This document shows, in pieces, positions 6,868 through 57,422 of a stretch of 64,000 bases of DNA. The first letter of the stretch is position 1. Every line of letters starts with the position of its first letter. The position numbers and the translations under genes were made by a program. The notes below the pieces were generated by a model that ran no database searches, was not told where the DNA came from, and saw only the letters and a program-made list of their open reading frames with translations. The stretch comes from Lytechinus pictus (Eukaryota), in the NCBI RefSeq assembly GCF_037042905.1, contig NC_087252.1, forward strand, positions 744,001 to 808,000. Direction: 5' to 3'.

Positions 6868-6916
<49 letters not shown>

Positions 6917-9900
6917 GATGATGATGATGATGGTGATGATGGTGGTGATGATGATAATTATGATCATAATGGCGATGATGATGAAGGTGATGATGATGAT
7001 GGTTATAATGGTGATGATGATGATGATAATGATGATGGTGGTGGTGATGATGGTGGTGATGATGATGATGGTGATGATAATGATGATAATGCTGATGGTG
7101 ATGATGATGGTGATGATGATGGTGGTGGTGGTGATGATGGTGATGATGATGATGGTGGTGATGATGATGATGGTGGTGGTGGTGATGATGATGATGATGA
7201 TGATGATGATACTGGCGATGATCATTAGAGCAATTACTCTAATGTATCAGTTTCATTAGGGGTCGTAATATTGGCGTCCAATATTATATGATTGTATTAC
7301 TTTTACGAAAATTGTCTTTTACCCTCTACAGGCATTGGATGCCGTTAAATCGAACAACTGGCCAGTATTTCATGTTCATCCTTTAAACCAAGAAGAGAAA
7401 GGCGAGATCATACGATGTTATATGGAACTCTACTCAAAGAACCTCAATACTGAACAAACAGATTTGATAGTCAATGCTAAACAGACCTCCAATGCTCTAT
7501 ACCTAAGGGCTTTATTGGATGAGGTGAGCTTTAATTGATTCATTAATTAACTCAACTTATAATGATATTAATAATACTGATGATGGTGGTGGTGATGATG
7601 ATGATGATGATAATAATAATATCGATAATAATGATAATAATTATAATGGTAATAATGATAACATCAATAATAATATTCATCATCATCGTCATCATCATCC
7701 ACAGCATTAGCGTGTGTGTGTGTGTGTATTTGAGTTTTGTCAGACGTGTATCAATCAGATATGAATATTTACGTCTAGGACCGACCTTTAACGTCACCAT
7801 CCGAAAGACGTGACCAGGGCTCGAACCTCTGCATCAATTTGTAACTTCCCCACATAGCCTGGATTACAGGCGCACGCCACAACGCCCAGTTGTGGCGTCC
7901 TTTGGCAAGAGGTTTATCTACATTTGCTACTTCTCACCAAGGCGCAGTGAATGGGTACCTTGTAGGATATAATTCCTTGAATGCTCTAGCGTTTGATCAG
8001 GGTAGCCGTGCTTAGTCCAGTGTAATATTATGCAGCGTTTAGGGGGAAAATGCATCAAGCACTCTATAAATACTGCATAGTATTTATTCATTACTATAAT
8101 TAACTTGATATTTACACTATTTTTTTATTCACCCCCTTCTCAGGTGCGTGTTTATGGTTCTTTCTATCAACTGACTTCCTCAATCAAGAATTATTTAGAA
8201 GCGCAGGATCCTGGTCAACTGTTTGTCAAAGTTCTTGAACGTCTAGAGTCTGACTTTGAACGGGGAGAACACGGAAGGTATAAACATTCTTTATCACAAT
8301 TTTCATTAGATGCTAGGTTTACTAACTAATTCAGTAAGGTATGATGATATCAAACATTTGGTTAGTATTTTCAAATTATATTGCTTGAAATTAATAATTA
8401 AAATAAATGTAATTTATTCTTTCAAATTTTGTTGCTATTGCTGGTAAAAACGATGCTTTATTCTCTGTCATATTTTCTTCTTGTTGTTTTATTGTCTTTA
8501 ATGCGTGTCTACTGATATCTTATAATTGCATAGCCCCAAAGAATGAGGTTTAGAAATATTTGCACTCGCATTTCGTAAATGTCCATCTGTTTGTTGTACT
8601 TCCTTGATATAGACCTAACCTTGTTCGGGATGCAACTTGTGCTCTTTGGTGCAGTAGCAGAGGGCTGAGCGAAGAAGAACTGACGTCATTTCTACAGGTG
8701 GGGATAGGCATGACCTGCAAAACAATATGTTATCTGTGCATTCGTTTATATGATTTTATTTTTATTGGCATGATATCTGTTAACCATTATGTTATCATGA
8801 CGGGTGTAAATCACATACATAATTATGAAACAAATTTTCGTTCTAAAACAAGGTGCAAACTTCTCAAACAGAAAGTAGAAGGAGAAAATTAATCATATTT
8901 TCAAAGAAAGACTTTATTCAATATTTCTCCACAAATCATATAATCAAATACAAATTGCATGTTATCTATAACAAATAATGTCATACATGTATAGGGAAAA
9001 AAATTGAATACGTTTGATGTGCCTGGATCCATCTATATCTACAATAAATTTGTTGCATATTCATAATGCGTTCTAACTCTTGTTGATATTTAAGTTTCTT
9101 TTGAAATGAGAGAAACGATATAAAACTTTGTAAACATCGAATGAAAATATATAATATTTAAATATAAAATATCACTATTAAAAGCACAATAATTTTCGCC
9201 TGGTATGCCAAATACAAAATTAAGTAGTTGATAAGAACCCAGCAAACGCTAGTTGCTAACTAATGAAGGGTGATGGGTTTTCTTTGATTCTCTTTTCCCC
9301 TAGGTTCCATCACGTATTTGGTCGCCTTTCTACCTCTCCCTCGAGGAAAACCTTGTTAACCGTAACGGCATCGTGAACTTCTTCCACGATCATCTGCGCC
9401 AGGCTGTTGAGAGGAAGTACGTCTCAATCCCTGCAGAGAAAAGACGAAGCTTCCTGAAGCTTGCCGAGTTCTTTGAAGAGCAGGACATAAATGAGAGATA
9501 TGTATGTAATTTCGTAAAAATATCTTGATAGAATAAATCAAAGCCGATACGTTTCCTCGTGTCCTATACGTCTCGCGATAAATAGTCAAGTTTCCACGCA
9601 GGTTAGGATGGGGGGGGGGGGTGATGTCTCCTCGAGTCTTTTTAGACTTCATTATGGCTTGGTGTTTTTATGTTTAGAGAGTTCATTTTAAGATTGGTTT
9701 CAAATTCGTAAGTGCTGATTATTAACACCAATAATAAATTATTATATAACTGGATATTGTCTACTAATTGATAAGAGGTTTAGTCAGTAAAAGGAAATTA
9801 TTTAACTGAACATATATTGGGGACCAATTCTAATACTGATTATTCTATAATCACATGTTTGCATTTTCTATGGATAATACAATATTTAAACCGTCACAGG

Positions 9901-18649: not shown

Positions 18650-20553
18650 GATTAGGGTACCATTGGGTCGCAAATCTCGCTTTTGGATCATCTTCTCTTC
18701 TCGTCAGACTATATTATCCGACCGCATTTAAAGGGCTAAACTTTCCATCCTCTGGACTCGGGTTTAATTCAAACTCTGGCCTAAAGTTGTGATTTAACTA
18801 TGAATATACACGTGTAATACAGCACAGGTTCAATTATTTATCACTTAATTCGACTCCGCGCTATCAGAGAATAATAACATATTTGTTCACCTTTAACGCA
18901 TTAATAGAGAGCACAGTCATACAAAAAATACAATCAAAACAGCACTTTGGGCTTCCCATAAATTTAACATCGTGATTATAACAAAGTAACACAGAAGGCT
19001 CTTGGATCCTCGGTGAAGAGGGAAGATCCCCTCCGGTTTTGACACAGACTTTTTACAATAACAGAATCAAAATTTATATTTAAAAAAAATTAGCCAAAAT
19101 ATAATGTGATTTAGTCTTGTAGATTTTATTAAACAGACCCCAGGTCCTGTCAAGGTTCCATGACATTTATTCCGACTACAATTGTTCCAAAACTAAATGA
19201 ATTCTTATCCTAATCCTTACAATATTCTAAACAAAAATTATATACAATCCCCCTCTAACCCTATGGCCTCTAAAACAGGGTAAACGGGGGGGGGGGCTGA
19301 GTGGGCTTCAGCCCCCCCCCCACACACTTTTACCAAAACCGTCGGTACAAGAACGTAAAAAATGACCAACTGATTATGATTGTTTGCATGGTCAGCCCCC
19401 ACCTCCTCCCCCCCCCCCCCACTTCCAAAACCGTTCCGTGGCCCCTGAAAGCAGTGTACAAAAACGTAAAAATAACTATCTGATTGTGATTTGTGCATGG
19501 TGCAAGAGTATAAGAAGCATATGTCGTGTCGTCTATGTGTAAGTATATGGAAAGTCGAAAGCCATTACCGGGCAAGTAATATAATAACACCTTAATTATT
19601 ATAATATTAGTCAGCCTTCACGTTCAATGTTTTTTGAAAAATTAAAACCTTTATAAGATTGGAATTAGAAAATGATCTATTTTACTTAATCAACAGAAAC
19701 AGTGCCAATACTGCGGGTTTTGCGTCAGGGCAAAAATCATTTTTGATTTTTAAATATTTCCTAACATGACAGACATCTTGTAAGACTCAAACATGCAAAA
19801 TAATGAATTCCATTACCTTTTCAAATACTTTAAACATTCACACAAATGTAAGTCAAAATTAATCAAATTGACTTTCCGAAGGTATTGTCGTGAATGAATG
19901 ATTTTTACTTTTTCATATTTTCTCAGTCGACCCGAAGATTTATGTTCAAATATGTCTTTGCTAACACCCACTCTCGGTGGTTATTGAAGTTTTATGACCC
20001 CCCCCCCCCCAGTTTGTTCAGTAGTCATGCAGCAGGGAGATCTGGGGGGTCTCTCTAAAAAATCGCTACTGATATTTGCAGGGGTATTTTTACACCAAAT
20101 CCCACAAGCAAACCCATACCCCAGGACCACAATTCCAATATAATTTACTAATTTTACTGATATAATCTATTGCCTTTTCTATAGTCTGTTTCTTCTTTTT
20201 ATCAAGTTCAGTTTGATTTGTATACTGTTAATTCAACTCTTAAAGGATAATCTTAAAGTGGTTTATGGGAGCTTGTCTTTATTTTCCCCGTTTGCAGAAC
20301 TTGCTTGAGTTGGGTATCGTATGTCAGAAGTTAGCCGACTATACCGCTGCCACTTCCTACTTCGAGGACGCCCTCAACCGGTTGTCCCACCCTGACACAG
20401 TTGAACATCGCCTCCAGATGATCAAAGCTCTTACTGGACTAGGGTTAGATATTTTTTTTAAAGTAGCACTAGATCTATTTAACCTATTTCATGTCTGATA
20501 TCCTGATAAAGGATAATAAAATAGTACATAGATTTAACAAAATATATTTATAC

Positions 20554-22960: not shown

Positions 22961-25490
22961 CGATCATCTCGACGGAGGGTGTTCCCGGTTCGGACTGAAT
23001 TGGGGTGTCTGAGTTGGCAAGTCCAGCAGCTAGCTGGAGGCTTGTAGGATAAATAGAACCAGGTGGGTGGTACCCAGATTGCAATATTGCTGACACTGTT
23101 ACGAGATTGCAGTTGGTCTGTTCAACATCTCGTATTGATTCTGTGGCCTCCGGCAACCTGGAGAGTGCATCTGCTGCTGCGTTGAGTCTTCCACTTCTGT
23201 ATTCAACGCTGAAGTCGAAATCAGCCAGGGCTGCCACCCACCGCTGCCCAGTAGCATCTAGTTTTGCTGAACTGGTTACGTAGAGAAGTGGGTTGTTGTC
23301 GGTTAATACATGAAATCGACGGCCCAGGAGATACTCACGGAACTTATCCACTACAGCCCACTTTAGGCCAAGAAACTCAAGCTTGTGTGCTGGGTATCTA
23401 GCCTCGGCTTGGGTTAAGGCCTTGCTTGCAAATGCGATAACTCTCTTCAACCCATCCTGGACTTGACTTAGGATCGCTCCAAGACCTGCTCCAGATGCGT
23501 CAACCTCGAGAAGGAATGGTTTCTCGAAGTCGGGAAACCCAAGGACCGGGGAAGAAGTTAGCTTGGACTTAAGAGTTTGAAAAGAAGCTTCGCACTCCTC
23601 AGTCCAGATGAAGGGAGGGAGGGGTTTTCTGGCACCCTTGCGTCGTCCACCACCTTCAGTAAGTTGGAACAGTGGCTTAGCTACCTTTGCGTACCCAGGG
23701 ACAAACCGCCGGTAATATCCTGTGAATCCTAGGAATCGCCGCACGTCTCGACTGTTCTTCGGGATCGGCCAGTCTTTCACAGAAGAAGTCTTCTCGGGAT
23801 CTGTCTCAATACCCTCCTGGCTGATGATATGACCAAGGTACTTGACCTTTGTTTGGAGAAGGTGACATTTCCTTGGCTTGAGTTTCAGACCCTGTTGATG
23901 GAGTCGCCCAAGAACTAACTTCAGTCGTTCCAGGTGCTCTTCAAATGTGGTGGAGAAGATGATAATATCATCCAGGTAGATCAGCAGCGAATGAAACTGC
24001 TGGTCACCTAGACATGACGTCATCAACCTCTGGAATGTTGCAGGGGCATTCTGGAGACCAAAAGGCATGCGGACACATTCAAAGAGTCCCATCGGTGTTG
24101 TGAAGGCAGTCTTCGGTCGATCCTCCTCGGCAACCTGTACTTGCCAGTATCCACTTGTAAGGTCAAGGGTGGTGGAATATTTTGCATTCCCCAGGGCATC
24201 CAGCGCCTCGTCGATTCGTGGCATGGGGAAAGCATCTCTCCTTGTCTTACTATTGAGGTGACGATAGTCCACGCAAAGACGAATGGAGCCGTCCTTTTTG
24301 TGTACCACTACGATTGGCGATGCATACGGGCTGTGGCTTTTCTTGATGACCCCAGCTCGTTCCATCTCTAGGATGTGTTCCCTCACCTCTTGGAACTGGG
24401 TAGGCGGTATCCGACGATATGGAAGGCGAAATGGGTCATTGTCGACAAGGGGGATAGCGTGTTCGACCTCCGTGGCACATCCATAGTCGAAGTCATGTTG
24501 AGAGAACACGTCTGAGAATTGAGCGAGAAGATTTTCCAGTCTCGTCCTTTCTGTCTCGGAGATGGGTGAGTTGGTCAAATCTAAGTCTGGAATTGATGCT
24601 GAAGTGTTGCCAATGAAAGAAGGGGTTCCGGGTGGGGTTGAGACTTGTCTCGCTGGGTTTTCCTCGATGGCACAGACCAGAAACAGCTGAGCGAGAGAGA
24701 CATTCTTGCCAATTGTGACTGGTCGATCCGAAACATTCCACACCCGAATCGGGACAAACCCACCTGGTGACACATCCACCAATGTCCTGCCTACCATCAG
24801 ACGTGTCCCTTTTGTTGACTGTCTAAGAGGTTCCACCATGGCTGTACAGCTTGGGCAGGTTCTTGCTACTTGGCACATCACCTCCACCTCAACTCCTGGC
24901 TCTATACGCTTGTTTCGGCCTCGATGGATAGCGTCTCCCAGTTTTCCACTGTCATCTCCTGGTCGATGTCTTTCCACTGCAGAGCATGCAGCAGACCATA
25001 CTCTGCTCTGTCTTGAAACTTCTTGGAGATAGAGTGTGCCATGTCGCTTAACTTGGTCCCGCTGAGCCAACCTGATGAGATTTGTTCCTATGAGAGCATC
25101 AATACCAGGCCCGTAGCTCCCTGGGGGAACGATGAAGGCTGGCACTCGAGGGTAAGTTTGGCCAAGACACTCAACCTCGATGAGGACAATTCCTTCATGG
25201 GACAAAGGGTGACTACCAGCTCCGTTTATCTGTACAGGAGAAGAAATAGGGGTTGTTTTACAGAGGGATGGATGAGAGGCGATGAAGGAAGACGACACAG
25301 TAGTCACCTGTGATCCCGAATCAACCAACGTTGGGACGGGGACACCATTGATGACTACTGTGTCGAGATTTGTGGGACCAACAATGGGAATAGGGTCATG
25401 GACATGGTCTAGGGGGTTGCTTGTGTTATATGGGATTTCCTTGCCCGCACTCTGTTCCTCCACCTTTAGTGCGGGCCGTATCCGTTTAAA
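22938..25490 (-). CDS. pol: Gypsy pol: protease, reverse transcriptase, RNase H
   Basis: LVDSGS (protease), RMPFGL and YLDD (RT), VDASG, LEFLGL, TDNNPL (RNase H); entered by -1 frameshift from gag. Confidence 0.95.
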   Translation of the reverse strand, partial: FKRIRPALKVEEQSAGKEIPYNTSNPLDHVHDPIPIVGPTNLDTVVINGVPVPTLVDSGSQVTTVSSSFIASHPSLCKTTPISSPVQINGAGSHPLSHEGIVLIEVECLGQTYPRVPAFIVPPGSYGPGIDALIGTNLIRLAQRDQVKRHGTLYLQEVSRQSRVWSAACSAVERHRPGDDSGKLGDAIHRGRNKRIEPGVEVEVMCQVARTCPSCTAMVEPLRQSTKGTRLMVGRTLVDVSPGGFVPIRVWNVSDRPVTIGKNVSLAQLFLVCAIEENPARQVSTPPGTPSFIGNTSASIPDLDLTNSPISETERTRLENLLAQFSDVFSQHDFDYGCATEVEHAIPLVDNDPFRLPYRRIPPTQFQEVREHILEMERAGVIKKSHSPYASPIVVVHKKDGSIRLCVDYRHLNSKTRRDAFPMPRIDEALDALGNAKYSTTLDLTSGYWQVQVAEEDRPKTAFTTPMGLFECVRMPFGLQNAPATFQRLMTSCLGDQQFHSLLIYLDDIIIFSTTFEEHLERLKLVLGRLHQQGLKLKPRKCHLLQTKVKYLGHIISQEGIETDPEKTSSVKDWPIPKNSRDVRRFLGFTGYYRRFVPGYAKVAKPLFQLTEGGGRRKGARKPLPPFIWTEECEASFQTLKSKLTSSPVLGFPDFEKPFLLEVDASGAGLGAILSQVQDGLKRVIAFASKALTQAEARYPAHKLEFLGLKWAVVDKFREYLLGRRFHVLTDNNPLLYVTSSAKLDATGQRWVAALADFDFSVEYRSGRLNAAADALSRLPEATESIRDVEQTNCNLVTVSAILQSGYHPPGSIYPTSLQLAAGLANSDTPIQSEPGTPSVEMIDPPRYTR
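25443..25490 (-). promoter_or_regulatory. -1 ribosomal frameshift signal
   Basis: U UUA AAC in gag frame, 7 nt spacer, 9 bp stem GCCCGCACT/AGTGCGGGC. Confidence 0.85.
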
Positions 25491-26443
25491 CGGCTCGCTT
25501 GGGCGATCGCATCCCCTCGGCCCCCGACTTTGTCGTTGCTGGATGGGGCCGGCCTCCGATTTGGACAGTTCCGTCGCCAGTGACTTCTCTGCCCACATTC
25601 ATAGCATTCCGACGGCCTGTTGGCTGCTGCAGGCACTTGAATTTCCATTGCGCTGATGCGCTTTTCCAGGGAAGCCACCCTCTCATCTGTCTTGCCCTGT
25701 TGATCTCTTATATCCGACACCAGACGCAGCACATCCTCGGTGTTTTTGCTAATTTGATTTAGCCGCGCCTGGTTACTGTCATCCTGGATCGAGACCTGTT
25801 GAGAGTAGGCGGCCGCAGGCCTTCTATTCTTCGGATGACGCTCCCGCGAGATTCGTCTAACCTCCTCCCGCAGACTCCTATACGTCATCATCCGGGGCCT
25901 CATTGGAGCTAGTCGGGTGCGTAGATCTTCATCTTTGAGGCCCCGCATGAATTGGGTGCAGAGGACTGAGTCCCTCTGCATGTCGCTAATGGCGGTGGGG
26001 AATTCCCTCTCGATTCCCTGGAATAGCGTCTGCAGTCCTATTGCGTAGGACTGTGCAGACTCTCCAGTTCTCTGCACCCGCTCGTAGAAGGCGGCGAATG
26101 GGTCATCCGTGTAGGAATCCCCATACTCCGCCTTTAACTCTGTGAAGGCATCTGATGCAGTCTGCTCTTCCAGGGGTTGGTTGAGTACTAACCTTCTAGC
26201 CTCCCCACCCAGGTTCCTAACGACCGTCGAATATTGAAGCGAGGGTGGTGTGCGACTTGCAATGAAGAAGTACTCGATGTCTCGCACCCAGTCTTCAATT
26301 GAAATCTTGGAGTCTTTCCCATTGAAAATTGGAACTCCTCTTACTTGAGATACAGCGGTTCCGGATGATTGTTGCATCTCGGGCTGGGTGGTCAGGTTAA
26401 GAGGAGAGTCGAAACTCAGCTCAGCTTCTGCTCGGGTGGCCAT
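25466..26443 (-). CDS. gag: Gypsy gag (PNMA-like capsid with CCHC zinc knuckle)
   Basis: 325 aa ORF; CYECGQRSHWRRNC; located after the PBS. Confidence 0.93.
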   Translation of the reverse strand: MATRAEAELSFDSPLNLTTQPEMQQSSGTAVSQVRGVPIFNGKDSKISIEDWVRDIEYFFIASRTPPSLQYSTVVRNLGGEARRLVLNQPLEEQTASDAFTELKAEYGDSYTDDPFAAFYERVQRTGESAQSYAIGLQTLFQGIEREFPTAISDMQRDSVLCTQFMRGLKDEDLRTRLAPMRPRMMTYRSLREEVRRISRERHPKNRRPAAAYSQQVSIQDDSNQARLNQISKNTEDVLRLVSDIRDQQGKTDERVASLEKRISAMEIQVPAAANRPSECYECGQRSHWRRNCPNRRPAPSSNDKVGGRGDAIAQASRLNGYGPH

Positions 26444-26933
26444 TTTGATTTTGATTTAAATGGACGAAATAAAATACTAAAAAAAACTAAAGTGAAATCC
26501 AATAGATAAATGAGGTTATGGCGGGAAAGCGAAGTTGTGGTTCGGTATATTATAAGGAAAAAAACCCCACTAAAACGCTGTACAAACAAATCGAATGATT
26601 ACTATTACTTATCAAATTCAAGATAGTAAGAATCCTATCAGTAGATCAAGCTAAACATATATTATATAAGATAAAATTTGAAGAATTATATACAAATGAT
26701 AGTCCCGAACAATTAACTGAATTCTTAAGCTAAAACAAAATACTTCTGTTAGATCAGTTTACAAAAAATGCTATTCCTTCTCAGAAGATGCCAGTTCTGA
26801 TCAATGAGACTCCAGAGTCGCTGCCAGTTCTGATCCAGACCTCTGTGACACTGTCAATGTTGGAACACGGTCGTGTGTCCTACTTCCCTCGCAAATTGCC
26901 GTCCTTGTTTTAGAGACTCGCAATCCGTTCACG

Positions 26934-34500: not shown

Positions 34501-37500
34501 TATATACTAACATATATTTTGTTTACTCTGAAGTACATTATATTATGTGTAAAATGCGTCATAAAAGAACAAAGTATTGTTTGATTATTATCATTGAAAT
34601 TATACCTTGTGTGGTAAATGCAATAGAATTATATCCCAAAGAACATTGAAATAAGAGTTTTTCTGTGGTGCTGAGCTATCAAAGATAAAGTTGGTGCTTG
34701 AATGCAGATCTTAAATAAGCCCACTCCAAAGATGGATTGGTTAAAATATGCAATCTTTTGTGTGTCAAACCAAAGATAGTCAGTCCTGACTGAAATTCTG
34801 GTATAATCTAAACCATGAATTGAATGTGGATTGATTTATTCCCTATTAAATTGGTTATCCATGACCATTCCTTTTGAAGCGTGACAGGGCATTCGTTCCG
34901 GCGACAGTGGCTCCAGGCCTTTTTCGCATAAGATATACGGTTGGGGTTGCAATAGGTTTTTTATGTTAGGGTAAGGATAGTTTGTACATGTAGTTTCAAA
35001 TCCAGGGTTGAAGTTGGCCATTCAATAAGTGTATGGAATTAACACCGGAGCAATTGTCGCCAGAGTAAATGTCACGGAACCCTTTCTAAGACTGTATAGT
35101 TCGAGAACATATGATATTCTGTTCAATACGTTAGTGCCTCTTTCCAGTTATACGTGTGTGGGAACTGTATTTTTTTACCAAAGCCCTTACCTATGTAAGA
35201 ATGATGATCATGATATTGACATTTATAAAGCGCTTTTGACAATAGTTTATAAAGCGCTGTTTATAAAAGTATACAGAGTGATACACTTGCAACATTCTAC
35301 CTCCATGCTTGCAATTATTCCATCAAATAGAAAACACATATTCTCTTATTTCCCACTTTTTATGGGGGTGTTTGGGGTTTTTCCTACTAAAACTCGAATC
35401 GACCTTTATCTCAAGCTATTGTTGATAAAAGCTGTCGCTATTTGACGCATCCAATTAAAGTATGGTCTTTGCCAGGCAAATCTATTGTGAAGTTCACCCA
35501 CTTTCACGTAGGCACTCGCTCAGGAATGGCACATCAAGAAAGCCCAGCTACATATTTTGTTTACAAAGACAATCATGACAGTCGAAAATAAACTGTCGAA
35601 AATGTTGCGTCAAGAGGTAACCAAACTTGTTTTAAAGGTTATGACGCGTATTAAAAGAAATTACCGAAAGGAATATGTCATGTGTTGCATGAACAAACCC
35701 ACTACATCATGATATTGTAATGAAATCGTCATAAAATCTTTATGAATTCAGGAGATTTATTTTTACCCAACTTTGGACTATTGTGTAGACTTGAAGGATG
35801 CAATAAGCGTTTATGAGCACAGGTTGTGCAGAAAGTATCACCATGTCTGAACAATATATTTGTGAAGACTATTGGTCGAGCTTTGTTGATCTGAAAAAGC
35901 TTTACTTTGGGGCTTCTATCAAGGTTGTAATGCCAAGCGTGGGCCTGTTTCATAGACATTGTTATGTACAAAATAATACCCATTACCAGTTTAAAGCTAC
36001 TGAAATCATTCGATCTGATTGGCTGATTGCAAACTTGTTATAGATATGGTGCATTTGTTATTATAAAAAGTCTTTATGAAATGGGACTTTTGTTTTGAAG
36101 CTGGTAGTCCGATAATATCAGAAAGTATTGGTGTAGAAACATGATTACAGGAAAGGGGTTTGGCATTATACCAACAATCAAAATGCATGATTAGGTAATA
36201 ACAAACGATTTGAAAAAATGGCAGTCAAATAAATTCTAGAGGCAGAGGTGAGAGCTTTTTTGTTTACAAAGTGATAACCATTTATTTTTCATAATTATAT
36301 TGCTATATTCTACCTGAGCCAGTAAATATGGCTAATCTCCATGTTACTGTTGGTCTTCAAATGTATACAATGCATTTTCTTGTATTTATCATTGCTCAGT
36401 ATACTTCTAAAGAAAATCATATTATCAGTTCAGAGGCGCACTTATTATTATTCTGAATTTAGCCTCGGTTGAAGTTTTGTTAGCCCTTCAATTATTGAGT
36501 TATATTTATCGGGTACCTGTTACCCGATCATTATAAACTCTTTGCCATATCGCATCATTGTTTACTATAAATTCCTAATTGAACTCCTTAAAACTACAAA
36601 TAGGGAGGGGGAATTTCTTTTATAATAATATCTTGGTATATTTTTAATTTGCATGTGTGGTGCAAATTAGACAGGAATTGTGATTTATGCTAGAGCAGTG
36701 TAGAAGAGAATAAAATTAATGTGTCACAGTATACAAATACATGTTATGTTGATTTATTTGTCATTTTTTTGTCTCTGTAATTTTTATGTGTAGTTGGTGC
36801 AGCTGTGGTAGATTAGAAAAAATTATCGCCACATTATTGTGACAGAATATTAACCCTAATGGTTCAAAAGTATCAATTAAAAAAATGATAATAATGGGAC
36901 TGAGTCTGTTTTGTTTTCATGGACTAACGATCGATGTAAAGAAATTGTGAGAAAATCACGATCATTATGTGTAATATTTTGCATATCACAATGATTTTGT
37001 GCCATATTTCTGTGAGCTTGTCAAAAGTTGGAAGTCCTCACTCAAGCGAAATGTACTGTCAGTATCTCACACTGTTCTCTAATAGAAATAGAACGAAGCC
37101 CAAGGGAAATATATGAACAAGAATATCCTTGTATTTTAGATTTTTTTTTTCAATTTGCCAGGACCATTTTCAAAGAGTAAACTTTTATTGAAATGAACTG
37201 TATCTAGGATCAACTCCCATAACTTCCGAAATAAAAAGAAAATTCGTCTCCAAATAGGAATAAGGTATTGATTAACAACAACAGTTTACACTAGGTGATC
37301 AGACGTGGTGCTGGAGGCATTGCATGTCAGGCATAAAATAGGCACTTTGGTAAACATCTATTCTACTCATAACAATAAACATCGACCTTGCAAAATAATT
37401 TAAATACCTTTTCAAATCCTTATAAAATTGACCTATGCACCTGATGCATGCAAAGCCATTGTTCGCAGACTGAAATCATGAAATCGGCTTTTGAATAGCA

Positions 37501-38917
37501 TGGTTTTGACAGAGCTTACTCTTTTATTTTGTCAGTCAACCAGAAATCGTAACAAAAAAGATTTATGCACTTGACGCCCGCCGTCGCCAGTTGCTGAACT
37601 TCTAAATATGACAAAATATGTCAATTCAATTCAATGCCAGAAACAGTCCCAATGTACAGTGAGAGGGAGGAGGTGAGGGAGGGAGGGGGGCATTTATGAC
37701 AACCTTAATGTTACAGCTTTTCTCCATTGATTTACACAAGTAGGATCTTTATTTTGTAACATTATTCTCTCTGCTTATTCCCATTTTGCCTCCTCCCCAT
37801 ATGTTTTTTTTTCTTTTTACCTTTCCACTTCTTAAAATATCATGGAGATCATTGCTCTCTGCGCCTCTGGTTAACGCCCATACTGTAAAGAATATTGGGT
37901 AAAATTTTAACCAGCACGAGGGTAATTATGTGCCCAAATTATGTGTCCAACCAATTTGGGGCAGTATTATACCAAATGCGCCCCTGGTTAACGCCCACAC
38001 TGTAAAGAATAGCCTAGTGGGTAAAATTTTAACCAGCACGAGGGTAATTATGTGCCCAAATTATGTGTCCAACCAATTTGGGGCAGTATTATACCAAATG
38101 CGGGAAGCATATTGTCCAGTAAGGTTAAAAAGATAGAATGGGCAAAATTTTATCACACTGGATAAATAAAAATGCCCCAAACGAAATGCCCAATGTTGAT
38201 TGGACACATAATTACCCTCATGGAGCACTTTTACCCAATTTTTTTTTTTTAGAGTGGATTAGGGTACCATTTGGTCGCAAATCTCGCTTTTGGAGCATCT
38301 TCTCTTCTCGTCAGACTATATCACCCGACCGCATTTAAGGGGCTAAACTTTCCATGCTCTGGACTCGGGTTTAATTCAAACTCTGGCCTAAAGTTGTGAT
38401 TCAACTATGAATATCCACTTGTAATTCAGCACAGGTTCAATTATTTATCACTTTATTCGACTCCGCGCTATCAGAGAATAATAACATATTTGTTCACCTT
38501 TAACGCATTAATAGAGAGCACAGTCATACAAGAAATACAATCAAAACAGCACTTTGGGCTTCCCATAAATTTAGCATCGTGATTATAATAAAGTAACACA
38601 GAAGGCTCTTGGATTATCGGTATAGAGGGAAGATCCCCTCCCGTTTTGACACAGACTTTTTACAATAACAGAATCAAAATTTAAATTAAAACAAATTTAG
38701 CCAATTATATAATGTGATTTGTTCTTGTAGATTTTATTAAACAGACACCAGGTCCTGCCAAGGTTCCATGACATTTGTTCCGGCTTAAATTGTACCAAAA
38801 CTAAATGAATTCTTATCCCAATCCTTACAATATTCTGAACAAAAATCTCTATACAATCCTCCTTTAACCCTATGGCCTCTAAAACAGGGTAAACGGGGGG
38901 GGGGGGCTGAGTGGGCT

Positions 38918-39666
38918 TTTCTTGGACGGTTAAGACATGTTGTTAACGAATCAAGCTTAAATTTGATATACAAATCTGCCATTTTGCCACATTTTGATTA
39001 CGCGAACGTCATTTGGTATTCCGCTTCACAAGGTTCTCTGTCAGCCCTTCAAAAACTCCAGAATAATGCTGGCCGTATAATTATGAAAATAAATCCCTAC
39101 TCTTTTGTCTCTAATCAACATATTCATGAGACTTTGCATTGGGAATTTCTTGAATGCCGCTATAAAAAGCATATATGTACAATGATTTATAAAATATTGC
39201 CCAATCTTTTTCCAAACTATATGTCTGATAACATTTTTAGAAGAACTTTAAATTATTCACTTCGTTCGAACCAAAATCTTAATTTACCCAAGCCAAATTC
39301 TAACAATTGTAAAAGGACATTTTGCTATAGGGGGATATCAATTTCTAATCAATTGCACAATGAAATTCGTAATGCACCAACTTTAAGTTCCTTTTTATAC
39401 TCTGTTATATGATTATTTAGATTGAGCATTTGTATTTCTTTTTTATTCTTTCTTTTTGTTTTTATAGTTTTAGTAATTTTTTTTTTATAGTATTTTTAAT
39501 GGTGTATATTACTTTGTATGGTAAATGTAGGACCCCAAGGAAGAACAGCAGTATTTTGTAAATACAGCTGAATTGGGTGATCCTCCGCTATTGTATATAT
39601 CTCTCTTGTATATTGTATATTTTTCTTTTTTTAAATCTGATTTCGGAAATAAAAACAAACAAACAA
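38918..39666 (+). mobile_element. 5'-truncated CR1/L2-group LINE (RT C-terminus, 3' UTR, AAAC tail)
   Basis: YKSAILPHFDYANVIW...LQKLQNNAGRII; absent at the paralogous site 19308; no clear TSD. Confidence 0.85.
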
Positions 39667-42600
39667 GCCCCCCCCCCCACCCACTTTTACCAAAACCGTC
39701 GGTACAAGAACGTAAAAAATGACCAACTGATTATGATTGTTTGCATGGTCAGCCCCCACCTCCTCCCCCTCCCCCCCCCCCCCCCCACTTCCAAAACCGT
39801 TCCGTGGCCCCTGAAAGCAGTGTACAAAAACGTAAAAATAACTATCTGATTGTGATTTTGTGCATGGTGCAAGAGTCTGAGAAGCATATGTCGTGTCGTC
39901 TATGTGTAAGTATATGGAAAGTCGAAAGCCATTACCGGGCAAGTAATATAGTAACACTTTAATTATAATATTAATCAGCCTTCACGTTCAATGTTTTTTT
40001 GAAAAATTAAAACCTTTATAAGATTGGAATTAGAAAATGATCTAGTTTACTTAATCAACAGAAACAGTGCCAATACTGCGGGTTTTGCGTGTGGGGAAAA
40101 ATAATTTTTGATTTTTAAATATTTCCTAACATGACAGACATCTTGTAAGACTCAAACATGCAAAATAATGAATTCCATTACCTTTTCAAATACTTTAAAC
40201 ATTCACACAAATGTAAGTCAATTAATCAAATTGACTTTCCGAAGGTATTGTCGTGAATGAATGATTTTTACTTTTTCATATTTTCTCAGTCGACCCAAAG
40301 ATTTATTTTCAAATATGTCTTTGCTAACACCCACTCTCGGTGGTTATTGAAGTTTTATGACCCCCCCCCCCCCCCCCCCGAGTTTGTTCAGTAGTCATGC
40401 AGCGCAGGGAGATCTGCAGGGGCCCGTTGCAAAAAGAGTTGCAATCAAACGCAACTCAAAAAATATTGTGCAACCTGATTTTCAGCCGATGAAGCACCCA
40501 TATTTGGAACTTGCGCTTGATATTTTGACTTGCGTTTAAACGCAACTCCTTCGGCAACAGGCCCCTGGGCCCTATCTTACATAGAGTTACTATTGATCCG
40601 ATCAACCTTGTGTATATGGAAATCCACCAATGACTTTTTTTTTTCTTCAGGAAATTGCACGATTTCCTTTGTAAACAAAAAGAAGCACACTTTCAAGAAA
40701 AATATGAATATACATTATATCCAGAAATTATTTTGAACAAATTTGCATTTTAGATGTTGAGGTTGCTGGCTTTCCATAGTTGTAGTTGATCTGATCAATC
40801 GCAGCTCTTTGTATGACGGGGTCCAGATATCTTTGAAAAAATACTTCACATTCATATACCCTGGAAATATCTCGAGATCCTCAGGAACTTCAACTCTTGA
40901 AAACTGATGTAGGGCCTAAACATGCAAAAGCAAAACCCCAGCGAAATAATTCATTTCACTTCATTTATTTCATTTCCCACAAAATATATCAAAATACAGT
41001 TTGATCAAATTCATTAAGTCAATGCAATAAACAAAATTGTAACATCATTGAAATGATTGAAATTTTACTTAGTTTAATTTTAGTCACACGTTTTTAAAGT
41101 AATTTCCTTTATTTCTATGATTTTGTTCGTCTTTTAAACTGTCTTGATTTTAATCTAGGTTTTTATTTTTGTTTTGATTCATTTAATGTGATATCATTGA
41201 TATGTCATGTAATTTTGATTGTGTATTGTATTTTACTTTATATTAATTGTATTTCATTTATTTTGTAAATCTTTCTATGTCTACAGGGCTCTTTTGTAAA
41301 GCAGGCCTTTGGGCTCTGAAAGGACTACCCTGTTTTTAAATAAAACTGAATAAATAAATAAATTAATTAAATGAAAATGTATCAACTAACAATAACAAAA
41401 AAGGTGTGACACTTAAAGAAACAGATTTATGTTTTGTTAAAGTGGGGTAGCCAATTCCATTATCACAAAATATATTTTTTTTAGGGGGTTCACAACCAGT
41501 GGCGGTCCGGGGGTGGCACATCCGGTGCGTGCTCCCCTTCTGAGAGTCATAACATAATCATTCAGAGAATATGCCGTCCATATAGTGAATTGAAAAAATT
41601 TTTGTCATTTTTTTCTGGAAGTAAATGATCTGCATTTTGTAGTGAATACGTTTTTTTTCTTGACATTTTTTTCCGCCAACATAATGCCCCCCCCCCCTTG
41701 GAAAATCCCAGATCCGCCCCTGTTCACAACCTCAGCCAATTTGTTGAGTCTACTAAGGGACGCCCCATAAGATACCCAGGGGGGGGGGGCGTGAATTTTG
41801 GGTTGATGCAATTTTTTTTCCTTTCTTCTTTGAGTAAAGTTTTTTTTCCTTAGTCTGTTGAGACAATTTTTTTTGCCCCTTTCAGATGATTTGTCAGTGG
41901 ACCAATTTTTTTTTTTTACTCTGATGGTGAGTCAAGTTTTTATTTTTGCTTATAAAGCAAATCATTTTTTTTTTGGGGGGGGGACTTCCAGCCCCCCCCC
42001 CCCCCAAATATCTAATAGTGCGTCCCGTAGAAAAGGGTTGTGAAAGTAAACGGAAAGAGGGAGGAAGGGCAGAAACAATATGGGAGTGAAAAGAAAGGGA
42101 CTTTTCTTCTTCCAGGGTATTGAGTCGTATGACCTTTGATCTCTGTTTCGTTCGAACCTTCCATAGGTCAAGTCCACTCCAGAAAAAAAAATTGATTTGA
42201 AGAAAAAGACAAAAAAATCAAACCAGCAAAACACTGAAAATTTCATCGAAATCGGATGTGAAATAATATAGTTTTAAAGTTTCGCTTATTTTCACAAAAA
42301 CAGTTATATGCACAATACAACTCAGTGGTATGCAAATGAGAGAGCCGCCGATGTCCCTAACTCACTATTTCTTTAGTTTTGTATTGTTTGAATTATACAA
42401 TATTCCAATTTTTACAGATTTTTAAGGACCCTCTTGTTAGAACCACAAAATGTTAAAATAATTATAATTACACTTGTTCAGGGAAGAATAAAACTTTGTT
42501 TTATATGACAACGGGGAGAAAATTATAATATTTCATATTCTATGTAATGAAATACAAAAGAAATAGTGAGTGGATGATGTCATCAGTCAGAAATTGTGAG

Positions 42601-51190: not shown

Positions 51191-53787
51191 TATATATAGA
51201 GAGCTATGATAAAACCATCCACTATTTTGGGCCATGGAGCAAGGTTTTGGCCATACATGCAGCTGCTCAGTGGAATGTCATATGTAAACACTGTCTGATG
51301 GCCTGAGCGAGGGTATTACATAATAACCCTGCTCATGGCTCTGTGGTTGAAGTAGGGGATTATCTATACTCCTCAGTGGTCATAAAATTTGGTTTACAGA
51401 CAGATGAAGTTATCCAATGAAAGCTCTCTGAAATTTTGGGTGGGTGGGACTTATTTTGACCGTGGGAACAAGATTTCCAAAGAAGAAGCAGACTCTGAAA
51501 TGGCTCGCTTCGCTCGCCCTTTCAGGCTGGTTTGCTTCGCAAACCAGCTGCAGATCCCACTTCACGAGCCATTCAGAGTCTGCATAGCAGACTAAGCGCA
51601 CCCGGCGGAGGCCGCGCTAGCTGCGTCATGCACGATTGCCCGTTCCATAGGGATGCATACGCACTCACAGAGATACGGAGATCCGTTCCGAGGACCCCCG
51701 TTTCACAAACATTTGTAGTTCCGAAGCCCGTTCCGAGGATCCTCCTTTTTACAATAAGCCCGCTCCAAGGCCCCCGTTTTTTTGCCTCGCCCGCGGCACA
51801 CCCCTACCACTTTTTTGGTCGAGTGCCCCCCCCCCCGGGTTCGGACAGCTTGACTGTCCGTCTTCTTCTCTTCTTCTATCCACTGTTTCTATAACACTCC
51901 ACATGGTGTACCGTAAACCACATCAGCAATTGTACATGCCACCATGCAAACCTTCAAACAACACAAGAATATCCTTGTATTTCAGATTTTCTTTTCAATT
52001 TGCCAGGACCTTTTTCAAAGAGTAAACTTTTATTGAAATGAACTGTATCTAGGATCAACTCCCATAACTTCCGAAATAAAAAGAAAATTCGTGTCCAAAT
52101 AGGAATTAGGTATTGTTAAAACAACCGTTTACACTAGGTGATAAGATGTGGTGCTGGAGGCATTGCATGTCAGGCATAAAATAGGCACTTTGGTAAACAT
52201 CTATTCTACTCATAACAATAAACATTGACCTTGCAAAATAATTTAAATACCTTTTCAAGTCCTTATAAAATTGACCTATGCACCTGATGCATGCAAAGCC
52301 ATTGTTCGCAGACTGAAATCATGAAATCGGCTTTTGAATAGCATGGTCTTGACAGAGTTTACTCTTTTATTTTGTCAGTCAACCATAAATCGTAACAAAA
52401 AAGATTTATGCACTTGACGCCCGCCGTCGCCAGTTGCTGAACTTCTAAATATGACAAAATATGTCAATTCAATTCAATGCCAGAAGCAGTCCCAATGTAC
52501 TGTGACAGGGAGGAGGTGAGGGAGGGGGGCATTTATGACAACCTTAATGTTACAGCTTTTCTCCATTGATTTACACGAGTAGGATCTTTATTGTTTAACA
52601 TTATTCTCTCTGCTTATTCCCATTTTGCCTCCTCCCCATGTGTTTGTTTTCTTTTTACCTTTCCACTTCTTAAAATATCATGGAGATCATTGCTCTCTGT
52701 GCCCCTGGTTAACGCCCACACTGTAAAGAATATTGGGTAAAATTTTAACCAGCGCGAGGGTAATTATGTGCCCAAATTATGTGTCCAACCAATTTGGGGC
52801 AGTATTATACCAAATGCGGGAAGTATATTGTCCAGTAAGGTTAAAAAGATCGAATGGGCAAAATTTTCATCACACTGGATAAATAAAAATGCCCCGAACG
52901 AAATGCCCAATGTTGATTGGACACATAATTACCCTCATGGAGCACTTTTACCCAAACTTTTTTTTGTGGATTAGGGTACCATTGGGTTGCAAATCTCGCT
53001 TTTTGGAGCATCTTCGCTTCTCGTCAGACTATATCATCCGACCGCATTTAAAGGGCTAAACTTTCCATCCTCTGGACTCGGGTTTAAATCAAACTCTGGC
53101 CTAAAGTTGTGATTTATCCACTTGTAGCACAGCACAAGTTCAATTATTTATCACTTTATTTGACTCCGGTCTATCAAAGAATGATACAATATTTGTTCAC
53201 CTTTAACGCATTAATAAAGAGCACAGTCATAAAAAAATGCAATGAAAACAGCAATTTTGGCTTCCCATAAATTTACCATCGTGATTAGACCATAATAAAG
53301 TAACACAGAAGGCTCTTAGATTCTCGGTGAAGAGGAAAGAAACCCTCCCGTTCCGACAAAGACTTTTTACAATAACAAAATCACAAATTATGTAAAAGCC
53401 AATCATATAATATAATTTGTTATTGTAAAATTTATTAAACAGACCCCCATTTACGTGACATTTGTTCCGGCTACAATTGTTCCAAAACTATATGAAAACA
53501 CGCAAAATAATAAATTCCAATACCTGTTCAAATACTGTAAACATTCACACGAAAGTAAGTCAACTGAATCAATTAAATTGACTTTACGAAGGTATTGTCA
53601 TGAATGAATGATTTTTACTTTTTCATATTTTCTCAGTCGACCCGAAGATTTATTTTCAAATATGTCTTTGCTAACGCCCACTCTCGGTGGTTATTGAAGT
53701 TTTATGACCCCCCCCCCCCCCCCCAGTTTGTTCAGTAGTCATGCAGCAGGGAGATCTGCAGGGGCCCGTTGCAAAAAGAGTTGCAAT

Positions 53788-53909
53788 CAGTAGCGTACCG
53801 TGAACCGCAGGAGACAAAGCATTGGGGGGGCAGTGCATTGTCTGTGAACAATGCTTTGCCCCGCCCCCCCCCCAATGCTTTGTCTCCTCCGAGTCACGGT
53901 ACGCTACTG
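53788..53909. mobile_element. 122 bp hAT-type MITE
   Basis: TIR CAGTAGCGTACCGTGA; 8 bp TSD GTTGCAAT; empty site near 40438. Confidence 0.9.
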
Positions 53910-55164
53910 GTTGCAATCAAACGCAACTCAAAAAATGTTGTGCAACCTGATTTTCAGCCAATGAAGCACCCGTATTTGGAACTTGCGCTTGATATTTTGA
54001 CTTGGGTTTAAACATAACTCTTTCGGCAATAGGCCCCTGGGCCCCATCTTACACAGAATTACTATTGATCCGATCAACCTTTTGTATATGGAAATCCACC
54101 AATGACATTTTTTCTTCAGAAAATTTGCACGATTTCCTTTGTAAACAAAGAGAAGCACACTTTATTTTCAAGAAAAATATTAATACATGAATATACATCA
54201 TATCCAGAAAATATTTTGAACAAATTTGCATTTTAGATGTTGAGGTTGCTGGCTTTCCATAATTGTAGTTGATCGGATCAATCGCAACTCTTTGTAAGAC
54301 GGGGTCCAGATATCTTTGAAAAAATACTTCACATTCATATACCCTGGAAATATCTCGAGATCCTCAGGAACTTCAACTCCGGAAAACTGATGTAGGGCCT
54401 AAACATGCAAAAGCAAAACCCCAGCGAAATAATTCATTTCACTTCATTTATTTCATTTCCCACAAAATATATCAAAATACAGTTTGATCAAATTCAATAA
54501 GTCAATGCAATAAACAAAATTGTAACATCATTGAAATGATTGAAATTTTACTTAGTTTAATTTTAGTCACACGTTTTTAAAGTAATTTCCTTTATTTCTA
54601 TGATTTTGTTCGTCTTTTAAACTGTCTTGATTTTAATCTAGGTTTTTATTTTTTGTTTTGATTAATTTAATGTGATATCATTGATATGTCATGTAATTTT
54701 GATTGTGTCTTGTATTTTACTTTATATTAATTGTATTTCATTTATTTTGTAAATCTTTCTATGTCTACAGGGCTCTTTTGTAAAGCAGGCCTTTGGGCTC
54801 TGAAAGGACTACCCTGTTTTTAAATAAAACTGAATAAATAAATAAATAAATTAAATGAAAATGTATCAACTAACAATAACAAAAAAGGTGTGACACTTAA
54901 AGAAACAGATTTATGTTTTGTTAAAGTGGGGTAGCCAATTCCATTATCACAAAATATTTTTTTTTTAGGGGGTGCACAACCAGTGGCGGTCTGGGGGGTG
55001 GCACATCCGGTGCGTGCTCCCCTTCTGAGAGTCATAACATAATCATTCAGAGAATATGCCGTCCATATAGTGAATTGAAGACATTTTTGTCATTTTTTCT
55101 GGAAGTAAATGATCTGCATTTTGTAGTGAATACGTTTTTTTTCTTGACATTTTTTTCCGCCAAC

Positions 55165-55433
55165 CAGTGGCGTACCTAGGATTTTCCACAGGGGGGGCAA
55201 AACCGTCCGCCAAAAAATTTGACAAGCAAAAAAAATTGACAAGCAAAAAAAAAAAAAAAAAAAAGGTCTTCAAGCTCGTCAGGGGGGCATTGAAGGTTTT
55301 AAAGCTCGTCAGGGGGGGCAAAAAAGGTTTTTCAAGTCCGTCAGGGGGGGGCAAAGATACGTTTTTGCATGGGTTTTGACTCGTCAGGGGGGGCAGAGTG
55401 CCCCCCCTGCCCCCCCCCGTAGGTACGCTAGTG
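55165..55433. mobile_element. hAT-type MITE, same family as 45898-46189
   Basis: 8 bp TSD CCGCCAAC; empty site near 41673. Confidence 0.9.
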
Positions 55434-55970
55434 CCGCCAACATAATGCCCCCCCCCCTTGGAAAATCCCAGATCCGCCCCTGTTCACAACCTCAGCCAAT
55501 TTGTTGAGTCTACTAAGGGACGCCCCATAAGATACCCAGGGGGGCGTGAATTTTGGGTTGATGCAATTTCTTTTCCTTTCTTCTTTGAGTAAAGTTTTTT
55601 TTTCCTTAGTCTGTTGAGACAATTTTTTTTGCCCCTTTCAGATGATTTGTCAGTGGACCAATTTTTTTTTTTTTACTCTGATGGTGAGTCAAGTTTTTAT
55701 TTTTGCTTATAAAGCAAATCATTTTTTTTTTTGGGGGGGCTAATAGTGCGTCCCGTAGAAAAGGGTTGTGAAAGTAAACGGAAAGAGGGAGGAAGGGCAG
55801 AAACCATATGGGAGTGAAAAGAAAGAAGAAAGGGATTTTTCTTCTTCCAGGGTATTGAGTCGTATGCCCTTTGATCTCTGTCCACTCCAGAAAAAAAAAT
55901 TGATATGAAGAAAAAGAAGAAAATCAAACCAGCAAAACACTGAAAATGTCATCGAAATCGGATATGAAAT

Positions 55971-56153
55971 GTGTGTGTGTGTGTGTGTGTGTATTTGAGT
56001 TTTGTCAAACGTGTATCAATCAGATATGATTATTTACGTCTGGGACCGACCTTTAACGTCACCATCCGAAAGACGTGACCAGGGCTCGAACCTCTGTATC
56101 AATTTGAAACTTCCCCACAGCTTGAATTACAGGCGCACGCCACAACGCCCATT
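55971..56153 (-). mobile_element. SINE with 7SL-like head, Deu/Nin-like core and (CA)n tail, copy 2
   Basis: Closely similar to 7713-7890; TSD T(A/G)TGAAAT at 55963-55970 and 56154-56161; absent at the paralogous site near 42257. Confidence 0.85.
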
Positions 56154-57422
56154 TGTGAAATAATATAGTTATGGCATTTTAAAGTTTCGCTTATTTTTCA
56201 CAAAACAGTTATATGCACAATACAACTCAGTGGTATGCAAATGAGAGAGCCGCCGATGTCTCTAACTCACTATTTCTTTAGTTTTGTATTGTTTGAATTA
56301 TACAATATTCAAATTTTTACAGACTTTTAAGGACCCTCTTGTTAGAACCACAAAATGTTAAAACTATAATAATTACACTTGTTCAGGGAAGAATAAAACT
56401 TTGTTTTATATAAAAACGGGGAGAAAATTAGAATATTTCATATTCTATGTAATGAAATACAAAAGAAATAGTGAGTGGATGATGTCATCAGTCCCCTCAT
56501 TTGCATACCGACCAGGATGTGAATATAACTATTAGCGTGAAATTAAGCAAAACTTTCTTATTTCACATCCAATTTGATGAATTTTTCAGTGTTATGCTTG
56601 TTTGATTTGTCTCTTTTCATTCAAACTATCTTTTTGTTGGGGGGACTTGTCATTTAATGATGTGGCACTGGAGCACAGATGGGGGTGGGGGCCTAGGGGT
56701 CATGCTCCACCGGCCCGACCAAGAAAACAAAAATGAAAAAGAAAGTTAAAGAGTAAAATTTGATATTTTCTGAATATTATATCAAAATTTATTCAATTAT
56801 AAGATCTCTTGTATGAAAAATGTCTAAATTTTCATTGCTCACTCGCTTCGCTCGCTCGCTTCTTTTTGTCTTATTTATAAAGTCCTTTTGCTCCGTCCGC
56901 CATTTCTGGCCCCCTCGAATTTCGAGGAACTTTTACGTCACTGAGTGGTGGTGTAAAATGTATCCATTATTTATTGGGGGAAGCTTTGCCATACCCTTCG
57001 AGACATAGGTGCCGCTGTTTCTCTCTTTGTCAATCATTTTCATATTCAGCTATATTGAATAAGGTTTTGCAGGCGAGCAGAGTCGTTCCCTTTTTTTTTT
57101 ATCTCTCTCTCTTTCTTCCAAAAATTATTCATATTTATAAGTAGTTGTAAATAGCTATAAATTTGTTTTTTTAAGTCAGCACTGCCCGCGATGTTGAATC
57201 GAGTAATGCAGGGCGAGACCAGAAGCATTCCATTTTGGCGCAAATATTCACTGCTGAATGATACAAGCCGTATAAGCTAAAACAACAACAACAACAATTT
57301 TCTCCCCCCCCCCCCACTCTCTCTCTCTATGTATTTCTTTTTTTTAAAGAAATATTCATTTTAGTAGTTATACCTAGCGTAATGTCGGCGAGACGGCCAG
57401 ATCAGAGGCGTTCCACTTATTA

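Follow-up and report, generated by a model that had tools for sequence, protein, structure and literature searches.

A SINE with a 7SL-derived head and a possible Deu-like core in the sea urchin Lytechinus pictus

The literature treats the independent birth of a 7SL-derived SINE as an extremely rare event, the published cases being the supraprimates, one hagfish family and, in 2026, the shrew mole. In Kojima 2018, 7SL-headed SINEs are known only from Euarchontoglires; the hagfish family SINE1-1_EBu (Eptatretus burgeri) has since been described as a chimera of 7SL and an older tRNA-headed SINE, with an RTE partner (PMC7245038), and the study by Kosushkin et al. 2026 adds the shrew-mole family Urop and holds that all 7SL-derived SINEs arose after a central deletion of ~183 nt (PMC13023118). 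From the architecture common to the published cases it has been argued that a SINE of this kind succeeds only with the entire Alu domain. As for sea urchins, the SINEs in print are tRNA-headed and include the DeuSINE SINE2-3_SP with a CR1 partner (PMC3747384); PMC4824008 and PMC5804259 also name SINE2-3_SP, and the supplements of PMC5804259 contain no SINE2-3, Nin or AmnSINE. SINE2-3_SP, which we know by description and not by sequence, could be a relative of the urchin family described here or of the metagenome copies discussed below.

In this study, we analysed a stretch of 64,000 nt of urchin DNA (the window), in which a sequence-only reading had noticed two minus-strand copies of an Alu-like SINE. 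Both copies lie where that reading had placed them: 55971-56153 and 7713-7890 are 94.9% identical over 177 nt (BLASTN), start alike with (A)CTGGGCGTTGTGGCGTGCGCCTGTAAT, carry the B box GGTTCGAGCCC at 56082-56092 (copy 1) and 7817-7827 (copy 2), and share the block GTCTTTCGGATGGTGACGTTAAAGGTCGGTCC followed by a (CA)n run. BLASTN found no third copy within the 64-kb window, the remaining matches being at most 27 nt long with E >= 0.03. We consider it probable, at roughly 85%, that the element is a non-autonomous sea-urchin retroposon (SINE) built of four modules, with a head that comes from the urchin's own 7SL RNA. Its features in the window are as follows.

55971..56153, minus strand: SINE copy 1, 183 bp, in one arm of a segmental duplication (BLASTN, self-comparison)
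56108..56153, minus strand: 7SL-derived head of copy 1, the 5' domain of the Alu fold (RF00017 positions 1-44, 13.5 bits; alignment with the urchin's own 7SL), with the 7SL-type box A stretch GGCGTTGTGG and the U-turn motif decayed to UGUAAUUC
56082..56092, minus strand: B box of copy 1, GGTTCGAGCCC, inside the non-7SL linker (no significant 7SL similarity past ~47)
56037..56080, minus strand: Deu/Nin-like core of copy 1, GGTCACGTCTTTCGGATGGTGACGTTAAAGGTCGGTCCCAGACG (by-eye comparison with published Deu alignments)
55994..56042, minus strand: 3' unit of copy 1, inverted repeat CAGACGT...ACGT(T/C)TG (conserved in metagenome relatives)
55971..55993, minus strand: (CA)n tail of copy 1
56154..56161, minus strand: 5' copy of the target duplication (TSD), ATTTCACA (self-comparison)
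55963..55970, minus strand: 3' copy of the TSD, ATTTCATA, one mismatch (self-comparison)
42257..42264, minus strand: empty paralogous site, a single ATTTCACA (self-comparison)
7713..7890, minus strand: SINE copy 2, 178 bp (RF00017 28.8 bits, E 6.3e-06 for 311 nt searched)
7843..7890, 7817..7827, 7772..7815 and 7713..7777, minus strand: head, B box, core, and 3' unit with (CA)n of copy 2, respectively

The urchin element resembles hagfish SINE1-1_EBu in several respects. Each joins a 7SL-derived head to the body of an older SINE lineage and ends in the microsatellite-terminated tail of a non-L1 'stringent' LINE, on which the urchin element presumably depends; each numbers on the order of a few thousand copies (2,363 in hagfish, ~1,500 in the urchin), is young, with top copies ~99% identical, and has an origin independent of Alu. 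The two differ in that the hagfish SINE keeps 96 nt of the 5' end and ~44 nt of the 3' end of 7SL, whereas the urchin SINE has only ~47 nt of the 5' end; the former has a complete Alu domain in which 7SL supplies both promoter boxes, while the urchin B box is non-7SL. The hagfish tail is bipartite, of RTE type, and ends in (AAC)n; the urchin SINE has a Deu-like piece and a (CA)n end. The urchin SINE would work as hagfish SINE1 does, without the complete Alu domain of every published SINE1. Alu, B1 and Tu of supraprimates and Urop of the shrew mole likewise use the 7SL 5' end, with box A and the UGUAAU turn, as a Pol III head, but they combine 5' and 3' 7SL sequence after the ~183-nt central deletion (PMC13023118) and have A-rich tails moved by L1, whereas the urchin SINE is without a 3' 7SL part and ends in a structured 3' unit and (CA)n.

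The window itself preserves a record of one insertion. Self-comparison revealed a segmental duplication in which 51840-56493 corresponds to 37117-42588; within it, 55434-55970 aligns with 41673-42264 and 56154-56493 with 42257-42588. Because the duplication alignment breaks at 55970/56154, the insert is exactly 55971-56153 (183 bp). The two flanking alignments share 8 nt in the paralogue, 42257-42264, where ATTTCACA occurs once and the SINE is absent, whereas at the filled site the SINE lies between ATTTCACA (56154-56161) and ATTTCATA (55963-55970). The 8-bp TSD with one mismatch and the empty site near 42257, both proposed from the letters, are thus confirmed, and this precise filled/empty pair supports the further proposal that the copy retrotransposed after the duplication. 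The window holds three paralogous segments in all (17516-20044, 37117-42588 and 51840-56493), which are 86-96% identical and represent local tandem or segmental duplication older than the SINE insertion. Two identical 138-aa open frames also lie ~19.9 kb apart, at 15167-15583 and 35029-35445.

Several lines of evidence tie the head to 7SL. A genome search with Metazoa_SRP (RF00017) returned seven 7SL genes at 272-283 bits and 18 sub-threshold matches at 32-35 bits, and all five of the latter that were inspected are SINE copies. The 7SL genes start ACCGGGCGTTGTGGCGTGCGCCTGTAATCCAGCTAC... (ACTGGG... in the variant L037) and the SINE starts ACTGGGCGTTGTGGCGTGCGCCTGTAATCCA(A)GCTA..., with its first base falling where the Rfam match to the 7SL genes begins. 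Exact runs of 28-33 nt are common to the SINE and the urchin's own 7SL genes. Four of five aligned copies match their own 7SL at 33-35 of the first 36 nt (92-97% identity) and at 37-40 of the first 47 nt (77-85%); the fifth, the decayed copy at 55971-56153, matches at 30 of 38 and is 79-82% identical over the first 36 nt, with a range of 71-82% across the two lengths. All six copies scanned matched positions 1-44 of RF00017 (13.5, 28.8, 28.9, 24.8, 24.0 and 22.6 bits), at permissive thresholds and with E-values that hold for only 311-1,412 nt searched, whereas none of the six matched tRNA (RF00005) or 5S (RF00001) at E <= 10, and ARAGORN found no tRNA in the window. The proposal of a 7SL head is therefore supported, with no copy fitting a tRNA or 5S model better. 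No copy reached the RF00017 gathering score of 70 bits, and a scan of the whole window at that threshold was empty, as expected because the head is a 47-nt fragment of a 299-position model.

The identity of the donor is indicated by box A. The stretch GGCGTTGTGG is the same in the urchin's own 7SL genes and in the SINE, and reads GGCGCGGTGG in human and GGCGCAGTGG in hagfish (Kojima 2020, PMC7245038); that these lineage-specific bases are shared argues that the head was copied from the lineage's own 7SL and not from a mammalian Alu. The head is predicted to fold into two hairpins, as 7SL fragments do. Its stability does not exceed that of shuffled sequence (z 0.28, range -0.77 to 0.33, for SINE heads and genuine 7SL fragments alike), and these z-scores are uninformative because genuine 7SL fragments score likewise.

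Similarity to 7SL ends at about position 47. When the SINE from position 34, 40 or 46 to its end was aligned locally with the rest of 7SL, 183-495 of 500 shuffles reached the score, and by the same comparison the 3' 7SL part is absent from the SINE. Two more extensive homologies were rejected since they did no better than shuffles, namely one reaching ~position 100 through scattered MAFFT matches and one in which cmscan aligned GGTCGGTCC... with the 3' strand of the Alu domain. The formal 7SL rule of SINEBase (PMC3531059) calls for at least 60% identity over an overlap of at least 60 nt; four of the five aligned copies have 70-77% over the first 60 nt and so fall under it, and the decayed copy at 55971-56153 has 58-59%, the figure being carried by the first 47 nt. 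Of the earlier label 'Alu-like', the 5' 47 nt of 7SL hold, while the missing 3' 7SL part means that the term overstates the likeness. Set against the definition of SINE1, the 5' region is indeed 7SL-derived, but there is no joined 5' and 3' 7SL forming a complete Alu domain, and of the promoter boxes only box A is 7SL, the B box lying in the non-7SL linker. Neither is the head tRNA-derived, as that of a SINE2 is, given the RF00005 result for the six copies (none at E <= 10) and the ARAGORN result for the window. A tRNA origin of the B-box linker is possible.

Beyond the head, the body begins at a junction that reads ...GGGGAAGT / TACAAAT... (slash at the junction). The core GGTCACGTCTTTCGGATGGTGACGTTAAAGGTCGGTCCCAGACG matches the start of the Deu domain in ~30 of 43 columns for AmnSINE1_HS (by eye, Kojima 2020 Fig. 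S4) and in ~31 of 43 for BivaMD-SINE1_AsNo (by eye, from the alignment printed in the Nishihara 2016 supplement). With DeuSINEs and Nin-DC the urchin SINE shares the motif GTC(T/C)TTCGGATG..GACGT(T/A)AA...GGTCC directly after the head, and with SINE2-3_SP, compared by description only, the same host clade. It differs from them in having only ~44 nt, the first third, of a domain of ~130-140 nt, and published members have tRNA or 5S heads. Since the remaining ~90 nt are absent, the core is at most a truncated one of Deu/Nin type, and the pattern for the canonical Deu motif gave no matches; what persists of the Deu/Nin-like core noticed from the letters is the resemblance by eye over that first third. 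In the 3' unit, an inverted repeat CAGACGT...ACGTCTG, presumed to be a LINE-recognition stem-loop, is followed by ACAAAACTCAAATA(CA)n, and the 3' end of the SINE can be written CAGACGT...ACGTCTGACAAAACTCAAATA(CA)n.

A different short repeat with a related-looking 3' unit occurs at 57239-57297 (plus strand) of the window and also at two genomic loci (L087 and L088). Its unit reads (G/C)GCGCAAATATTCA(C/T)(T/A)(G/T)CTGAATGA...(CAA)n and has a similar loop on a stem of GGCGC/GCGCC instead of AGACGT/ACGTCT, changed on both sides. A related LINE lineage may be the source of this tail, which would then be a sister to that of the SINE.

The same body is found elsewhere with other heads. A scan with a 24-nt stretch of the core identified three marine-metagenome contigs (L107, L108 and L109) that, from B box through core and stem-loop to tail, are 82-90% identical to the urchin copy L002 (91/101, 90/110 and 83/101), whereas their heads are unrelated, with 17/53, 14/71 and 16/53 identical head columns (20-32%), and none of the three has an RF00017 match. 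Their homology to the urchin SINE begins at TACAAA(C/T)TGA, at SINE position ~48, which is where 7SL similarity ends. L109, the tail of which is (CAAC)n, matches the linker of an old urchin copy (L082) in 19 of 26 columns, and L108 has the tail variant ACGTCTGTAAAAACCCAA in common with that same old copy. By eye, the metagenome heads contain tRNA-type A-box motifs, and neither RF00005 nor ARAGORN recognised any of the three. Word-seeded pattern searches gave no match to heads of the L108 or L109 type in the urchin genome, a result that is not proof of their absence, and linker patterns designed for an other-headed parent family gave 38 and 7 matches, all of them truncated or mutated copies of the SINE. 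Like bodies with unlike heads that part at the 7SL end amount to one body with two unrelated 5' parts. These relatives lend support to the head swapping that had been suggested on the evidence of the window, and the sequences thus favour a head swap in this SINE lineage. The heads of published Deu-type SINEs are of tRNA or 5S type, from which we infer that the 7SL part is the newcomer and replaced a tRNA-type 5' half.

The family is large. In the 812-Mb assembly (368 contigs), a 33-nt core pattern with up to 3 mismatches had 1,579 matches (785 + 794) and a 27-nt head pattern had 1,450 (750 + 700, the seven 7SL genes included), while the reversed control patterns of both had none. These counts are far above chance and put the family at ~1,500 copies genome-wide, not the two in the window; at ~178 bp and interspersed on many contigs, it exceeds the SINEBase minimum, which asks for at least 100 copies. 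Twenty of 20 fetched loci with an exact head and no exact core had the same SINE body with a mutated core. Conversely, of 20 loci with an exact core and no exact head, 14 had a mutated 7SL-type head, six were 5'-truncated or rearranged, and none had another head on the SINE body.

Copies of very different age coexist. Among the 30 best-match loci returned, eight copies match L002 at every position (100%) over 169-172 nt and ~20 differ from it at one position (99.4%), and in a less biased sample of 40 loci identity forms a continuum from 78% to 99.4%. Compared with the youngest family copies, the window copies are 96.5% (copy 1) and 98.3% (copy 2) identical, and much older, CpG-decayed copies with a 7SL-type head also exist (L089 and L095). 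It follows that the family has persisted for a long time and was still active very recently. One subfamily is marked by a 7-nt GTTCGAG duplication ahead of the B box, and L082 represents an older variant in linker and tail. The SINE also forms head-to-tail dimers and a trimer, for example at L106 (G000:C2:17634170-17634690; period 171, 94% matches) and further at L006, L019, L039, L041 and L042, with units joined through the CA tail (...ACACAC/TGGGCG); these arrays suggest that new copies landed in the tails of existing ones or that unequal exchange took place. A tandem repeat of ~100 bp, with units containing ...GGGTCTGGAAGAAAGACTACGCTATA..., houses SINE copies at five loci (L007, L016, L019, L085 and L087).

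Insertions elsewhere in the genome resemble the one in the window. Among 46 copies examined with a crude script, 10 have target duplications of 6-13 bp, 11 have ones of 4-5 bp, and the other 25 have none that it detects; the duplications often start in CA-like sequence. Some copies are 5'-truncated to the last ~35-100 nt and are flanked by target duplications of their own. The insertion pattern, TSDs, truncations and arrays fit target-primed reverse transcription by a LINE, with (CA)n annealing to the nicked target. In a search for the partner LINE, two tail patterns with 'not-SINE' letters in front had 119 and 18 matches, and the 23 loci inspected with 6 kb upstream held only truncated or mutated SINE copies, with no shared upstream sequence and no RT-like open reading frame. 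The window contains the C-terminal part of a CR1/L2-like LINE ORF2 at 38789-39412 (plus strand), with a (CAAA)n tail near 39646-39670; we rejected it as the partner because its tail is different.

The element is thus made up of four modules. The first is a ~47-nt head from the 7SL 5' end, spanning Alu-domain helices 2-4 and containing box A and the UGUAAU turn; the second, a ~30-nt non-7SL linker with a consensus B box that related SINEs with other heads have in common; the third, a stretch of ~44 nt similar to the beginning of the Deu/Nin SINE domain; and the fourth, a 3' stem-loop followed by (CA)n. RNA polymerase III would start at the 7SL start site, using box A of the 7SL part and box B of the linker, and would read through the SINE, inside which TTTT is absent. 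The reverse transcriptase of a LINE would then recognise the 3' stem-loop and repeat and copy the RNA at a nicked target, so that the SINE would depend on that LINE. That transcription is by Pol III is suggested by box A, by the lack of an internal TTTT and by a B box that fits the consensus GGTTCGANNCC. By analogy with the account of Alu in Kojima 2020 (PMC7245038), we hypothesize that the UGUAAU turn and two hairpins may give the head a role in binding SRP9/14. Structural work is a further basis for this hypothesis.

Could the element instead be an ordinary tRNA-derived SINE (SINE2, of DeuSINE type) in which the A-box region came to resemble 7SL by chance or convergence? The B box is a perfect one of tRNA type, Deu-type SINEs in print carry tRNA or 5S heads, SINE2-3_SP is listed as a sea-urchin DeuSINE with a tRNA head in PMC3747384, and the heads of the metagenome relatives show tRNA-type boxes by eye. 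An A box, however, explains only ~11 nt, as against exact runs of 28-33 nt and the same 5' end as the urchin's own 7SL genes, and RF00017 matched six of six copies where RF00005 matched none at E <= 10; we regard this explanation as very improbable. Equally improbable is that no self-propagating SINE exists, and that the copies are one-off chimeras made when a reverse transcriptase switched from a SINE or LINE RNA onto 7SL RNA, or were spread by segmental or tandem duplication alone. Small RNAs are known to form chimeras by template switching (Kojima 2020, PMC7245038), head-to-tail arrays exist, and some copies do share flanks as parts of a larger repeat (L010, L018, L020 and L027; L039-L042; L054/L055). 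Against this stand the uniform junction in ~1,450 copies on many contigs, the subfamilies that have the same head (those with the 7-nt GTTCGAG duplication, or of L082 type), the unrelated flanks of most inspected copies, the continuum of copy identity from 78% to 100% and the precise filled/empty site. On balance, the evidence favours a genuine, recently active SINE in which an own-7SL head and a Deu-type body were joined by head exchange.

A more serious alternative concerns novelty, in that the family may be real and already catalogued under another label, for instance as a relative of a sea-urchin SINE2 or DeuSINE in Repbase or Dfam, with at most the reading of its head being new. Libraries of sea-urchin SINEs go back to 2005 (SINE2-1 to SINE2-8_SP), SINE2-3_SP is recorded in PMC3747384 as a sea-urchin DeuSINE with a CR1 partner, and automatic libraries of newer urchin assemblies probably contain the repeat. 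Against this, in Kojima 2020 (PMC7245038) the first evident SINE1 from outside Euarchontoglires is the hagfish family, and the study by Kosushkin et al. 2026 (PMC13023118) reports no 7SL-derived SINE outside supraprimates and hagfish other than its own. Our search, which covered the literature and not Repbase, Dfam or SINEBase, found no publication on a 7SL-headed SINE in an invertebrate. We judge prior cataloguing to be a substantial chance, though the less probable outcome, and consider that the urchin 7SL-headed SINE is probably unreported as such.

The own-7SL retroposon that we favour invites a bolder interpretation, offered tentatively and with odds somewhat longer than those of prior cataloguing: it could be the first 7SL-headed SINE lineage outside vertebrates and a minimal one, in which a 47-nt 5' domain, 7SL box A plus the SRP9/14-binding turn, sits on a Deu-type SINE of a stringent LINE and acts as a portable proliferation module. 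If this were true, neither the complete Alu domain nor the recurrent ~183-nt deletion, both present in all published cases, would be required. With only the first 47 nt of 7SL, the urchin family would add a fourth lineage to those in print, as yet the only one from an invertebrate, and would amount to a deletion experiment done by nature. Through it one can test whether the 5' domain is only half of a promoter or also a recruiter of SRP9/14. The family also indicates that 7SL is among the sources from which Deu-type SINEs can exchange their heads, so that classification of SINEs by A and B boxes alone can hide such cases.

SINE copies also occur beside 7SL genes. An older copy ends 33 bp upstream of each of three tandem 7SL genes (L031, L035 and L036; G000:C10:7911947-7920824); these copies are 80-88% identical and are absent at the four other 7SL genes, and L031 has a second copy further upstream. 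Three tandem repeats of the arrangement indicate that SINE, 33-bp spacer and 7SL gene were duplicated as a whole unit. The adjacency may reflect chance, targeting of Pol III genes, or a link to the origin or upkeep of the head. Directly after the terminal T-run of the L031 7SL gene, at ~1810-1850, there is a tRNA-like 3' fragment, CCTGGTTCGAGTCCAGG, which may belong to a different SINE or be what remains of a tRNA.

The window contains other features. Three consecutive long open frames at 21044-26455 (minus strand; 329, 886 and 639 aa) resemble a Gypsy-type LTR retrotransposon in order and motifs: a gag frame containing a zinc knuckle, then protease/RT/RNase H, then integrase. A long GAT/ATC-rich microsatellite just downstream of SINE copy 2 (6618-7259) gives rise to spurious open frames in which His, Asp, Met and Ile abound. 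At 2376-2822 and 5100-5600 (plus strand) lie exons of a DUF4062 / NACHT / TPR gene. Its homologues place the genome, in the assembly of which no mitochondrial COX1 is present, among the sea urchins and hence the invertebrates: the gene is 97% identical to the Lytechinus variegatus 'TPR repeat-containing protein DDB_G0287407-like', and for the exon at 5100-5483 the values are 90% for Strongylocentrotus purpuratus, 83% for Diadema antillarum, and lower for crinoid, brittle-star and amphioxus.
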